Of a stretch of 6,085 nt of DNA, positions 1 to 6,085 are shown in pieces. How positions within the stretch are numbered: the first letter of the stretch is position 1; each line of letters begins with the position of its first letter. Both the position numbers and the translations under genes were made by a program. Origin of the DNA: a phage. The notes below the pieces were generated by a model. That model saw only the letters and a program-made list of their open reading frames with translations. It was not told the origin of the DNA and made no database searches. The stretch lies in the sequence record PX907427.1. One strand, 5' to 3'.

Positions 1-26
1 TTGTTGACATTCCCCAAACCCTTATG

Positions 27-65
27 AGACTCTTGCTTCAACGAAACGAAGTTGGAGTCTTTTTT
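27..65 (+). terminator. Candidate intrinsic terminator downstream of gene H in the circular genome (TH-like): bipartite hairpin plus T-tract
   Basis: Seen in sequence: agactc (27-32) pairs with gagtct (55-60); inner stem caac (39-42) pairs with gttg (51-54); followed by ttttt (61-65). Stem is short and only moderately GC-rich, so strength is uncertain. Confidence 0.3.
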
Positions 66-434
66 ATGAAACCTGCTCACCGCCTTTTTCACCCTGTTCT
101 TGGCTCATGGTTGTTTAAGTGCCCCGTTTATGTTCGTTATGAGTCCCTTCATCACGGTCGCCTCATTAAGGTTCGTGCTGTTCGTGATCTTTCCCCTCGT
201 CAGCAGTTGATTGCCAATCCTAAAAATTGCTTTGATGTTGTCATCGCTGAGATTGACGTTACTCGTCTTTCTGTTACTTGGTATGATTTTGAAGCCGAAG
301 AGTATGCTGAGTGTGATTCCGGCACTATGGAGCTTCTTCTTTCTCAGGTAAATTCTGGCGAGGTTATTCGCTCATCTGAAGATCTGTTTGTTGATGTTGA
401 TGATATGGAATGGCTTTATGAAATTGCGGAGTAA
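66..434 (+). CDS. Hypothetical protein (ORF1) in the H-A intergenic region, 122 aa from ATG 66 (136 aa if ATG 24 is used); basic N-terminal half, acidic C-terminal half
   Basis: Open frame 24-434 in the ORF track. GGAG at 54-57 lies 8 nt upstream of ATG 66; ATG 24 has no SD. Codon third positions are strongly T-biased (cgt, gtt, gct, gat, ctt), matching the confirmed phage genes. No homolog recognised by eye. Confidence 0.5.
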   Translation: MKPAHRLFHPVLGSWLFKCPVYVRYESLHHGRLIKVRAVRDLSPRQQLIANPKNCFDVVIAEIDVTRLSVTWYDFEAEEYAECDSGTMELLLSQVNSGEVIRSSEDLFVDVDDMEWLYEIAE

Positions 435-437
435 GTC

Positions 438-527
438 GTGGAAACTGTTATCGGAAAATTTATTGCTCTGGCTGTTGTTGCTCTTATGCTGTATGGAATT
501 TCCCGTTTGATTCGGAGGTTCCCGTGA
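438..527 (+). CDS. Hypothetical small hydrophobic peptide (ORF2), 29 aa, GTG start: METVIGKFIALAVVALMLYGISRLIRRFP
   Basis: GTG 438 preceded by cGGAG (427-431) with a 6-nt spacer; one predicted transmembrane-like segment followed by a basic tail RLIRR; same frame as ORF1, separated from it only by TAA (432-434) plus one codon; its stop TGA (525-527) overlaps the ORF3 start. Short ORF, so chance occurrence is not excluded. Confidence 0.3.
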   Translation: METVIGKFIALAVVALMLYGISRLIRRFP

Positions 528-700
528 AATATTTTAGTTTGGTAGATGAACATTATGCTTACTGCCCTGATACAAGGATTTTGCACATTACTCGTAGTCG
601 TGTTTCTGACCCTCGGTATGAGCGTCGTTTTCTTACTGATGAGGAACATTTTGCACTTTTGGATTGGTTGAAAAATCGTCCAACTTACATTAATTCTTGA
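524..700 (+). CDS. Hypothetical protein (ORF3), 58 aa, GTG start: MKYFSLVDEHYAYCPDTRILHITRSRVSDPRYERRFLTDEEHFALLDWLKNRPTYINS
   Basis: GTG 524 preceded by GGAGG (514-518) with a 5-nt spacer; GTGA start/stop overlap with ORF2; T-biased third codon positions; absent from the supplied ORF track (below its length cutoff or because of the GTG start). Confidence 0.4.
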   Translation: MKYFSLVDEHYAYCPDTRILHITRSRVSDPRYERRFLTDEEHFALLDWLKNRPTYINS

Positions 701-726
701 CAGACCTTTAAAATACCCTCTATATT
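697..726 (+). promoter_or_regulatory. Candidate sigma70 promoter for gene A (pA-like): -35 TTGACA (697-702), 18-nt spacer, -10 TATATT (721-726)
   Basis: Perfect -35 hexamer and 5/6 match to the -10 consensus with 18-bp spacing, about 33 nt upstream of the A start codon; phiX174 has its pA promoter in the equivalent position (established knowledge). Confidence 0.4.
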
Positions 727-755
727 GCCCTCATAGTTTCACTACGAGGGCTTTT
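727..755 (+). promoter_or_regulatory. Hairpin plus T-run immediately upstream of the gene A ATG; terminator-like and/or SD-sequestering 5'-UTR structure
   Basis: gccctc (727-732) pairs with gagggc (746-751), inner tagt/acta pairs (734-737 with 741-744), then tttt (752-755). The only SD-like motif for gene A (GAGGG, 746-750) is in the 3' arm of the stem. Confidence 0.3.
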
Positions 756-3064: not shown

Positions 3065-4360
3065 ATGTCTAATGTGCAAACCTCCGCAGAACGTGAAATT
3101 GTCGATCTCTCCCATCTTGCTTTTGACTGTGGCATGATTGGTCGTTTGAAAACCGTTTCTTGGACCCCTGTTATTGCTGGTGACTCTTTTGAGATGGATG
3201 CCGTTGGTGTACTTCGTCTTTCTCCGCTTCGTCGCGGTCTGGCGATTGACTCTAAGGTTGATTTCTTCACCTTCTATATTCCGCATCGTCACGTTTATGG
3301 TGACCAGTGGATTCAGTTTATGCGTGATGGTATTGATGCAAGTCCTCTGCCTTCTGTTACTTGTAGCCGTTACCCTGACCATGCTGGTTATGTAGGTACT
3401 ATTGTTCCTACGAATAGCCGTATTCCGAAGTTCTTACATCAGAGCTATCTGAATATTTACAATAACTATTTCCGTGCTCCGTGGATGCCTGAGCGCACTG
3501 AGCAGAACCCTTCCAATCTTAATGAGGATGATGCTCGTTATGGCTTCCGTTGCTGCCATCTTAAAAACATTTGGTCTGCCCCTCTGCCTCCAGAGACTAA
3601 ACTGGTTGAGCAAATGGGTATTAAAAGCAATTCCATTGATATTATGGGCCTACAAGCCGCTTATGCGCAGCTTCACACTGAGCAAGAGCGTACTTACTTT
3701 ATGCAGCGTTACCGTGATGTTATCTCCAGCTTTGGCGGTTCAACCTCTTATGATGCCGATAACCGACCGTTGCTTGTTATGCACACCGACTTCTGGGCTT
3801 CCGGTTACGACGTTGATGGTACTGACCAATCTTCCCTTGGACAGTTCTCTGGTCGAGTCCAGCAGACGTTTAAACACTCAGTGCCGCGATTCTTCGTGCC
3901 TGAGCATGGTGTCATGATGACTTTGGCTCTGATTCGCTTCCCGCCTATCAGTCCGTTGGAGCACCATTATCTTGTTGGTAAGTCTCAGTTAACCTATACC
4001 GACCTTGCTGGCGACCCGGCCCTGATTGGTAACTTGCCTCCTCGCGAGATTAGTTATCATGACCTGTTCCGTGATGGTCGTTCTGGCATTAAGATTAAAG
4101 TTGCTGAGTCTATTTGGTATCGTACTCATCCTGACTACGTTAACTTTAAGTATTATGATTTGCAGGGATTCCCATTCCTTGATGATGCGCCTGGTACGTC
4201 TACTGGTGATAATCTTCAGGAGGCTATTCTTGTTCGTCATCAGGACTATGATGCTTGTTTCCAGTCTCAGCAGTTGTCACAGTGGAATAAACAGGCTCGC
4301 TATAACGTTAGTGTTTATCGCCATATGCCTACTGTTCGCGATTCCATTATGACCTCTTAA
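3065..4360 (+). CDS. F: Major capsid protein F, 431 aa
   Basis: Strong match to phiX174 F from memory ([28 protein letters not shown]...FTFY.PHRHVYG). AAGGA (3053-3057) lies 7 nt upstream of ATG 3065. Confidence 0.97.
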
Positions 4361-4958: not shown

Positions 4959-5041
4959 AAGGCCGCCGCACTCCCGGTTATATGCCTGCCCAGTGTAGGG
5001 CGGACCGAGCCGTACGGAGATACCCGATAAACTAGGAACGT

Positions 5042-5068
5042 GGAAGGCGTTAGCCGCCTTCCCTCCTG
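5042..5068 (+). other. Candidate complementary (-) strand origin element: perfect 8-bp hairpin followed by CTG, of the primase-dependent G4 type
   Basis: ggaaggcg (5042-5049) pairs with cgccttcc (5055-5062), loop ttagc; CTG at 5066-5068 lies 3 nt 3' of the stem. Sits in the only sizeable non-coding spacer apart from H-A (G-H, 4959-5092). Confidence 0.35.
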
Positions 5069-5092
5069 CTAAGCCCAAAAGGAGTTACAGCG

Positions 5093-6085
5093 ATGTTAGG
5101 TGCTGTTGTTGGTGGTATTGCCTCAGCCTTAGCTGGTGGTGCCGCTTCAAAATTATTCGGAGGCTCTCAGCGTGGAGTTTCTGTTATGCAGCAAGGTGCC
5201 GAGTCTGCCGGATTGACTAACGGTGGCGGTGCCATTTCTATGGATAATGACCAAGGTATTCAGTCTGCTATTCAAGGCTCGAATGTTCCTCCTGCTGGTC
5301 AGCTTCCTGAGTCTCAGAATTCTGGTGTTATGGCTGATGCTGGTAATATGCTTCGCAATGCTGGAAAGTCCTTGCTTGACGGAACTATTCAGGCTGGCTC
5401 TGATAAAGTTAAACAAGCCCTTATTGATAAGTTGATTGGAGGTAATGATGCCAAAGATCGAGGAAAAGCCACCCGTGATTACTTGGCTGCGGCCTTCCCT
5501 GAGCTCAACCCATGGGAACGTGCTGGAGCTGGTGCTTCCACTGCCGGGTTAGAGTCCTCTGCTCAGAATCAGCAGAAAGAGATGTTGAAGATGCAATTGG
5601 ATAATCAGAAAGATATTGCAAAAATGCAGATGGATAATAATTTGCAGATTGCTGGTATTCAGTCTGCCACCTCTCGTCAAAATACAAAGGATTCTGTTTA
5701 TGCCCAGAATGAGATGCTTCAGTATAATCAACGTGAGTCGCAGGCACGCGTTGCGTCTATCCTCGCCAACACTGACCTTACGACTAAACAAGCCACCCAT
5801 GAAATTATGAGGATGGCCCTTACCCGCGCTCAGGAGACTGGTCAGCATTTGACTAACTCTCAGATTATGGCTTTGGAGAAAAAGGTTTATGCAGAAATTG
5901 GCAAAATTCATCAAGATACTCAAAATTCTCGCTATGGTAGCTCTCAAGTTACTGCCGCAGCGAAAGACGTTACGAATATGATTACTGATGCCTCTTCAGG
6001 CCTTGCTGATTGGGCTTCTCAGCAGTGGAATTCGTTCTTTAAGGATGGCAAGTCCAACGGTATTTCTTTTAATACTAGAAAATAA
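5093..6085 (+). CDS. H: Minor spike / DNA pilot protein H, 330 aa
   Basis: N-terminal glycine-rich hydrophobic segment GGIASALAGGA.SKLFGG and central block KDTRDYLAAAFPELN.WERAGA...IAGIQSATSRQNTKD.VYAQNEML match phiX174 H from memory. AAGGAG (5079-5084) lies 8 nt upstream of ATG 5093. Stop TAA is the last 3 nt of the window. Confidence 0.95.
   Translation: MLGAVVGGIASALAGGAASKLFGGSQRGVSVMQQGAESAGLTNGGGAISMDNDQGIQSAIQGSNVPPAGQLPESQNSGVMADAGNMLRNAGKSLLDGTIQAGSDKVKQALIDKLIGGNDAKDRGKATRDYLAAAFPELNPWERAGAGASTAGLESSAQNQQKEMLKMQLDNQKDIAKMQMDNNLQIAGIQSATSRQNTKDSVYAQNEMLQYNQRESQARVASILANTDLTTKQATHEIMRMALTRAQETGQHLTNSQIMALEKKVYAEIGKIHQDTQNSRYGSSQVTAAAKDVTNMITDASSGLADWASQQWNSFFKDGKSNGISFNTRK

Follow-up and report, generated by a model that had tools for sequence, protein, structure and literature searches.

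The stretch of DNA analyzed here (PX907427.1; 6,085 nucleotides [nt], referred to in full as the window) is the complete genome of an alpha3-like microvirus (Bullavirinae, genus Alphatrevirus), linearized just past the gene H stop codon, with a G+C content of 45.3%. Our analysis indicates that the region between genes H and A is probably a translated accessory operon of three consecutive open reading frames (ORFs), designated ORF1, ORF2, and ORF3. The core microvirus life cycle would not need this operon, which appears to be specific to Alphatrevirus and has been kept by all sampled members of the genus. Measured around the circle, the H stop codon (gene end at 6085) and the A start codon (759) are separated by 758 nt. 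The same interval measures 63 nt in phiX174; in the G4-like phage ID52 it measures 58 nt. This bears out the original prediction, made from the window alone, that the H-A interval is far longer than that of phiX174. The first 760 nt matched 27 phage records at 80 to 96% identity, every one of them alpha3-like, and the H-A region is 96% identical to that of alpha3. The phage, vB_SEC_3 (PX907427), has been reported to share about 95% whole-genome identity with alpha3, and its published description gives eleven canonical coding sequences (CDSs) only, the H-A genes being omitted (PMC13029530).

Three ORFs had been proposed on the plus strand, at 66-434, 438-527, and 524-700, and all three are present there (Table 1). 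Each is preceded, as had also been claimed, by a Shine-Dalgarno (SD) motif at an appropriate distance: GGAG (54-57) lies 8 nt before the ATG of ORF1 at 66, GGAG (428-431) lies 6 nt before the GTG of ORF2 (438-440), and GGAGG (514-518) lies 5 nt before the GTG of ORF3 at 524. The ORF3 start codon overlaps the ORF2 stop codon in the sequence GTGA (524-527). A mechanical search opens ORF1 at an ATG at 24. Indels of 1 to 3 nt between 24 and 66 in the relatives break that extension, so ATG 66 is taken to be the real start. The T-rich third codon positions on which the proposal partly rested were found (fraction of T of 0.56, 0.47, and 0.59 for ORF1, ORF2, and ORF3, compared with 0.35 to 0.66 for the canonical genes). 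Codon log-odds calculated against the phage's own table were +0.45, +0.22, and +0.18, respectively, compared with -0.2 to -1.5 in the shifted frames, and thus were positive for each ORF in the claimed frame only.

In order to compare the region across the clade, we drew on GenBank, IMG/VR, metagenomes, and Logan assemblies for a set of 25 distinct H-A regions, with 69 to 96% nucleotide identity to the window, and calculated the ratio of nonsynonymous to synonymous substitution rates (dN/dS) by the Nei-Gojobori method. The expectation that relatives would keep the frames and favor synonymous over nonsynonymous changes was upheld by coding-type substitution in the proposed frames. Variable sites were distributed over the three codon positions as 78/65/112 in ORF1 (p = 1e-10) and 19/19/35 in ORF3 (p = 0.002). 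The dN/dS of ORF1 was 0.18 in frame compared with 1.3 to 1.8 in the other frames, and that of ORF3 was 0.07 to 0.12 in frame compared with 1.0 to 1.8 out of frame. For the N-terminal 66 codons of ORF1, dN was 0.04 at a dS of 0.70 (dN/dS = 0.06), and the constraint therefore acts on the protein and not on the DNA. No codon periodicity was detected in the flanks (1-63 and 701-757) among the 25 regions. Indels sit at the ORF boundaries. The interiors of ORF1 and ORF3 hold one in-frame insertion of 96 nt and two 1-nt gaps, the latter being the only instances of the frameshifting indels that would speak against coding. These patterns of substitution indicate that ORF1 and ORF3 are under purifying selection as proteins. 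The coding constraint on these two is strong; that on ORF2 is good.

The gene order H-ORF1-ORF2-ORF3-A was identical in all loci recovered, and ORF1 was present on every alpha3-like contig found that extends through the end of H. Identities to the annotated clade members ranged from 73 to 97.5% for ORF1, 85 to 100% for ORF2, and 88 to 98% for ORF3. Our protein collection contains about 226 distinct ORF1-family and about 144 ORF3-family sequences, from contigs of which the longest are about 6 kb and the others shorter fragments. The sole name among these proteins is "hypothetical protein [Escherichia phage Lilleven]." As judged from the sequences recovered, ORF1, ORF2, and ORF3 are confined to the alpha3-like microviruses.

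Table 1. Features of the H-A region and coordinates of neighboring genes in the window
Feature	Position	Strand	Description
ORF1	66-434	+	122 amino acids (aa), 14.2 kDa, isoelectric point (pI) 4.8, beta-rich; open in 23/25 genomes
ORF2	438-527	+	29-aa hydrophobic peptide that starts with GTG and has a basic tail and one predicted membrane span
ORF3	524-700	+	58 aa, 7.2 kDa, three or four beta-strands and a C-terminal helix; open in 25/25 genomes
Frame X	418-510	+	Overlapping +1-frame ORF, 30 aa, MKLRSKSWKLLSENLLLWLLLLLCCMEFPV; candidate overprinted gene, unproven
Frame Y	546-671	+	Overlapping +1-frame ORF in ORF3, 41 aa, hydrophobic; stop-free in 25/25 genomes, ATG in 23/25
-35-like TTGACA (module 1)	4-9	+	3 nt past the H stop codon; TTGAC kept in 16/16 annotated clade genomes
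Hairpin 1	26-61	+	Followed by T-run 60-65; terminator-like; 3' arm carries the ORF1 SD GGAG (54-57)
Promoter TTGACA-18 nt-TATATT (module 2)	697-726	+	Likely P_A, the gene A promoter; 11/12 matches; -35 box overlaps the ORF3 stop codon
Hairpin 2	727-751	+	T-run 752-755; directly before the A start at 759; 3' arm GAGGG (746-750) is the gene A SD
Gene A	759-2243
Gene F	3065-4360
Gene G	4395-4958
Gene H	5093-6085

The cassette is already on record as a set of conserved ORFs, and the window adds another member. A passage in Wichman and Brown (2010; PMC2935103) cites Rokyta et al. (2006) for conserved alpha3-like reading frames, of which five are counted. We infer that these frames lie in the H-A region and that the five are ORF1 to ORF3 plus two overlapping frames at 418-510 and 546-671, designated X and Y. 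In the GenBank record of phage Lilleven, three hypothetical proteins (QBZ71502-QBZ71504) correspond exactly to the three ORFs of the window, with 95% identity for ORF1 and 88% identity for ORF3. The Alphatrevirus frames typified by Lilleven share with those of the window the clade, the position, the order, and orthologous proteins; the window differs by the GTG start codon of ORF2, where the others have ATG. Among the 27 matching phage records, CDSs are annotated in the H-A region only in Lilleven, while MG945254 carries misc_features there, and M25640, an alpha3 record of the 1980s, carries ribosome-binding site (RBS) marks corresponding to ORF1, X, ORF2, and ORF3. The suggestion that the region is unannotated accessory content thus holds for most of these records, but it was preceded by the Lilleven CDSs and by the citation in the passage of Wichman and Brown. 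We found no functional follow-up of the H-A frames in the literature.

ORF1 is predicted to encode a beta-rich cytoplasmic protein of 14 kDa. Its N-terminal half is basic and nearly invariant; its C-terminal half is acidic (about 16 Asp/Glu versus 2 Lys/Arg residues) and variable, and falls into several divergent allele classes. The most divergent arrangement was found on a Logan contig (L017, positions 778-1535; SRR20337160), in which an ORF1 allele only 34% identical to that of the window stands beside nearly identical ORF2 and ORF3. This allele retains the motifs AHR..HP..G.WLFK.PVY and ANPKNC. The alignment points to a mosaic genome with recombination at the ORF1/ORF2 boundary. Two further loci (L051, positions 1501-1965, and L052, positions 689-1153) encode an ORF1 variant of 154 aa, in which the in-frame 96-nt insertion follows codon 3 and places 32 residues, acidic and serine rich, after Met-Lys-Pro. 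ORF1 is not open in two records, the 1992 alpha3 record X60322 (L004) and St-1 (GQ149088; L007). In X60322, a 1-nt deletion near window position 193 shifts the frame. This gap is missing from the resequenced alpha3 genome (DQ085810.2), and it therefore is considered a sequencing error. In St-1, a 1-nt deletion near window position 230 has the same effect, which could mean that ORF1 is dispensable in culture.

An AlphaFold (AF2) model of ORF1 was beta-rich and confident, with a predicted local distance difference test (pLDDT) value of 90.8 and a predicted template modeling (pTM) score of 0.83. The BFVD model of the Lilleven ortholog, which was obtained independently, superposes on it with a template modeling (TM) score of 0.97. 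A Foldseek search of the ORF1 model against BFVD returned its own Lilleven ortholog only. As modeled, ORF1 has a confident predicted fold without a match in PDB or BFVD. The corresponding AF2 model of ORF3 had a pLDDT of 76.8.

ORF2 is predicted to be a single-span membrane peptide of about 3 kDa (grand average of hydropathy [GRAVY] of 1.19, pI 10.9) ending in the tail RLIRRFP; its length, start, and junction are preserved in every member of the clade. It is 28 to 30 aa long in 25/25 genomes, which encode 19 peptide variants, and its start codon is ATG in all 24 distinct genomes other than the window. There are two alternative C-terminal tails, each with its own stop/start overlap to ORF3 (GTGA or ATGA). 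Gene finders call ORF2 in Lilleven and in two other loci (L054 and L055). Searches for homologs of ORF2 gave a best PHROG match of E = 0.026 and tblastn matches in the clade only. Its composition, a hydrophobic span with a charged end, would fit a small membrane-active peptide (E-, K-, or TisB-like). In one ENA entry (P0022; 78 aa, from a contig of 761 nt) the N-terminal 20 residues of ORF2 are fused to ORF3; the entry is a deletion variant unless its contig was misassembled.

The number of genes in the cassette is less secure than its coding nature: the three ORFs of the original prediction are all supported, but their count may be incomplete, in that the overlapping frame X shows signs of constraint. 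We consider it possible, if doubtful, that the segment 418-527 is dual coding, with the leucine-rich product of frame X being translated besides or instead of ORF2. This would bring the cassette to at least four genes and would resemble the overprinting of E on D, E lying within D in the +1 frame. Third-position diversity in the ORF frames is 0.25 to 0.5 over most of ORF1. For ORF3 it is mostly 0.13 to 0.30, reaching at most 0.40 ahead of frame Y. Across approximately 406-510, a block matching frame X, the third-position diversity of ORF1 and ORF2 drops 4- to 10-fold, to 0.03 to 0.09. At 396-530, RNA structure was rejected as the reason for the low synonymous diversity (fold z = +0.9) and does not explain the conservation of 406-510. 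Within 438-507, diversity by phase was 0.142, 0.007, and 0.055; the highest value belongs to the third position of X and the last to the third position of ORF2, and the changes at the third position of X are conservative in ORF2. The dN/dS is 0.27 in the frame of X compared with 0.40 to 0.58 for ORF2. The ATG of X is present in 25/25 genomes and the frame is stop-free in 24/25, that of L017 terminating one codon earlier. M25640 marks the RBS for X at about 407-409, and the literature count, in the passage cited above, is five frames and not three.

Several observations argue against translation of X. Its codon log-odds is -0.61 compared with +0.22 for ORF2, its SD motif is weak (GGA), its ATG is a by-product of conserved Tyr-Glu codons of ORF1, and there are few substitutions from which to judge. 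The mosaic structure of L017 shows recombination at the boundary, where a recent sweep could have reduced diversity. Further, because third positions are T rich, the +1 frame is poor in stop codons throughout the genome (1.6 to 5.3 stops per 100 codons in the frame +1 to every gene, compared with 10 to 16 in the +2 frame). The +1 phase yields long hydrophobic ORFs elsewhere as well, e.g., 3474-3917 and 4026-4352 inside F. Frame Y has a dN/dS of 1.03, and of its three codon positions the second varies the most; from this pattern of substitution it is probably a compositional by-product.

The operon is flanked by two regulatory modules. In phiX174 and the G4-like phages, the H-A spacer consists of a single module. 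Past the H stop codon come TTGACA and a -10 box, then a hairpin that provides the gene A SD in its 3' arm, and finally a T-run and the A start codon. The alpha3-like phages have two such modules, at 1-68 before ORF1 and at 697-761 before A, with approximately 630 nt of coding DNA between them. This anatomy suggests that the cassette is an insertion into the ancestral spacer, accompanied by duplication or splitting of the regulatory module. In module 2, the promoter is the best sigma-70-like site in the genome, and when ID52 and phiX174 are aligned to it, their P_A region falls at this place. The promoter is conserved across the clade except in NC35 (L011), in which the -10 box is deleted. The deletion in NC35 spans 29 nt (approximately 704-732 in window coordinates) and also removes the 5' arm of the hairpin; NC35 is still a viable isolate. 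Hairpin 2 (centroid fold of -14.2 kcal/mol) is present in 24/25 genomes and shows covariation, with a compensatory TA-to-AT change at 734-744 (18 versus 6 genomes) and a CG-to-TG change at 730-748. It is the counterpart of the phiX174 terminator T_H, and the layout is the same in phiX174 and ID52. Logel and Jaschke reported that T_H of phiX174 overlaps pA and stops about 70% of transcription, compared with only 20 to 40% for the other terminators.

In module 1, the TTGACA occupies the position of the P_A -35 box in ID52 (TAA, 3 nt, TTGAC). Unlike the phiX174/G4 module, it combines a perfect -35 box with no consensus -10 box; the best candidate is GAGACT (26-31), with a 16-nt spacer and 3/6 matches, including the key A2 and T6. 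A promoter scan of the genome did not list a promoter in module 1. Hairpin 1 has a folding energy of -16.6 kcal/mol (z = -4.6; 0/200 shuffles as stable) and folds in all 25 relatives (-13 to -21 kcal/mol). Its inner stem is variable yet still pairs, and its outer stem is invariant and so speaks neither for nor against pairing. The T-run of this module is interrupted in many relatives. The loci with the longer ORF1 variant (L051 and L052) have a longer loop in this hairpin. Folding of parts of the H-A region revealed no stable fold besides the two terminal hairpins.

The cassette probably is transcribed at a low level, for which there are two candidate routes. Late mRNAs containing H may read through a leaky hairpin 1. 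Instead or in addition, a weak promoter that uses the TTGACA of module 1 may start transcription within this hairpin. The ORF1 SD would thereby be released, as would be the case for the gene A SD with P_A in phiX174, whose start is recorded at 3962, inside the hairpin there. Translation of the three ORFs probably is coupled, given the gap of 3 nt between ORF1 and ORF2 and the GTGA overlap that joins ORF2 to ORF3.

We obtained no evidence of a source for the cassette. Consistent with the claim that its ORFs do not resemble canonical microvirus proteins, BLASTP gave nothing better than E = 0.1. Duplication of other phage genes was rejected as an origin, since no comparison with the remainder of the genome by BLASTP, blastn, or tblastx gave a match below E = 0.06. 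Nothing significant was found for ORF1 to ORF3 in Pfam, PHROGs, PADLOC, or NCBIfam, and profile searches against PDB sequences gave chance-level matches only. A profile hidden Markov model of the ORF1 family, searched against 1.84 billion representative proteins, recovered the family itself and one divergent allele only. Neither tblastn (phages and plasmids) nor blastn (E. coli genomes) revealed a source outside the clade; no donor was found in 5,426 E. coli genomes, 72,556 plasmids, 50,697 phage records, or the 1.84 billion protein representatives. The earlier statement that no homolog is recognizable therefore extends to every library searched, outside the clade. Since the codon usage of the cassette matches that of the phage, any acquisition must have taken place long ago; otherwise, the genes originated in the lineage itself.

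Two known types of accessory gene provide a comparison. Like E (in D) and the nonessential K, the H-A genes are small, some are hydrophobic, sister clades complete the core cycle without them, and +1 overlaps possibly are involved. Unlike E and K, ORF1 to ORF3 lie on their own DNA and not over essential genes, and their sequences resemble neither E nor K nor any canonical protein. Like phage morons, the cassette is a clade-specific insertion between promoter-like and terminator-like elements, is not needed by relatives, and undergoes allele exchange (L017). Unlike for morons, no donor was found in the genomes, plasmids, phages, and proteins searched, and the codon usage of the cassette is that of the phage.

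As to function, the products may be nonstructural and directed at the host, acting in host range, antidefense, or superinfection exclusion. This is the guess that we prefer, although we regard it as somewhat unlikely. It is suggested by the existence of sister clades that have the same life cycle without the cassette, by the frameshifted ORF1 of the St-1 record, and by the divergent C-terminal allele classes of ORF1 together with one swapped allele. A more elaborate proposal is an accessory module of four or five genes, in which ORF1 would be a new-fold protein acting on the host (antidefense or host range) and evolving by allele swapping, and 418-510 would encode both ORF2 and X. Taken as a whole, this is unlikely. 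If true, 418-510 would represent a second, independent case of microvirus overprinting in the stop-poor +1 frame, besides E in D.

Some of our own data weigh against an expressed, host-directed accessory operon. The St-1 frameshift could be a sequencing error, like that of X60322. With a dN/dS of 0.33, the variable half of ORF1 is better matched by relaxed constraint than by positive selection. The dN/dS of ORF2 is only 0.4 to 0.6 and its synonymous diversity is very low; frame X, which overlaps it, has the better value (0.27), and any assignment of 418-527 to a coding frame is therefore provisional. Module 1 is without a good -10 box, and the ORF1 SD is tied up in hairpin 1, so that read-through mRNA may support little translation of ORF1. 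No homology or fold search has given a functional clue for the cassette. Finally, the genome contains no EcoKI or EcoBI sites, and thus there is no obvious need for a function against type I restriction; with about 0.7 of each site expected, their absence is uninformative.

It is also conceivable, but quite unlikely, that the cassette regulates the phage's own program, with ORF3 tuning gene A transcription or replication or with ORF2 timing E-mediated lysis. ORF3 lies just upstream of P_A and bears a weak likeness to part of the OmpR/ToxR DNA-binding domain. It does not have the winged-helix architecture of that domain, which comprises about 100 aa with an N-terminal beta-sheet, three helices including the recognition helix, and a C-terminal wing.

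That ORF1 is an antirestriction DNA mimic of the Ocr/ArdA type, allowing growth on restricting B and K-12 strains, is very unlikely. Strains of the B or K-12 type support growth of alpha3, St-1, and phiK, whereas phiX174 and G4 are limited to E. coli C as host. The strongly acidic C-terminal half of ORF1 and the low pI of the whole protein would suit a mimic, as would the differences in the acidic half between lineages. Ocr and ArdA, however, are acidic over their whole elongated surface, whereas the ORF1 model is beta-rich and its N-terminal half is basic, and no match to these proteins was found in Pfam, PADLOC, NCBIfam, PDB, or BFVD.

The notion that the H-A region is noncoding and is conserved as a cis element (complementary-strand origin, packaging signal, or regulatory RNA), its ORFs being T-rich by-products, can hardly be entertained: the flanking hairpins are conserved, composition alone does open +1 frames, and the region is empty in most reference annotations, but the reading is already contradicted by the comparative data, in which the excess of third-position changes and the low dN/dS values (0.07 to 0.18) occur in the proposed frames only, the N-terminal half of ORF1 is conserved as protein rather than as DNA, indels lie outside the ORFs or in frame, and the 34%-identical ORF1 allele retains its protein motifs, while Rfam and tRNA searches of the region gave no matches and the G4-type origin maps elsewhere. 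A complementary-strand origin in the H-A region was ruled out, the similar sequence being the G-H spacer (4959-5092). This spacer is 93 to 97.5% conserved across the clade, more than the coding DNA. The G4-like phages ID52, NC6, and vB_1081 have a sequence 82% identical to it between F and G, in intergenic DNA that is unannotated. On this similarity, it is very likely a G4-type primase-dependent complementary-strand origin that lies between different genes in the two clades. The genome of NC29 (L015; 6,259 nt) is about 170 to 190 nt longer than those of its relatives; the surplus is upstream of the G-H spacer (G-H match at 5133 compared with about 4945 in relatives), and the H-A region is unaffected.

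An accessory operon of this kind would mean that the alpha3-like phages give about 10% of a 6-kb genome to uncharacterized proteins. The Bullavirinae are a model for "complete" annotation, and phiX174 was declared fully annotated by synthesis. Most database records omit ORF1 to ORF3, and annotations of Alphatrevirus for phage therapy should include them. The three are true orphans, retained by all sampled members of the clade and missing from two sister clades. The small genome makes knockouts an easy route to their function, which probably relates to the ecological distinction of the alpha3-like phages, possibly to their host range.

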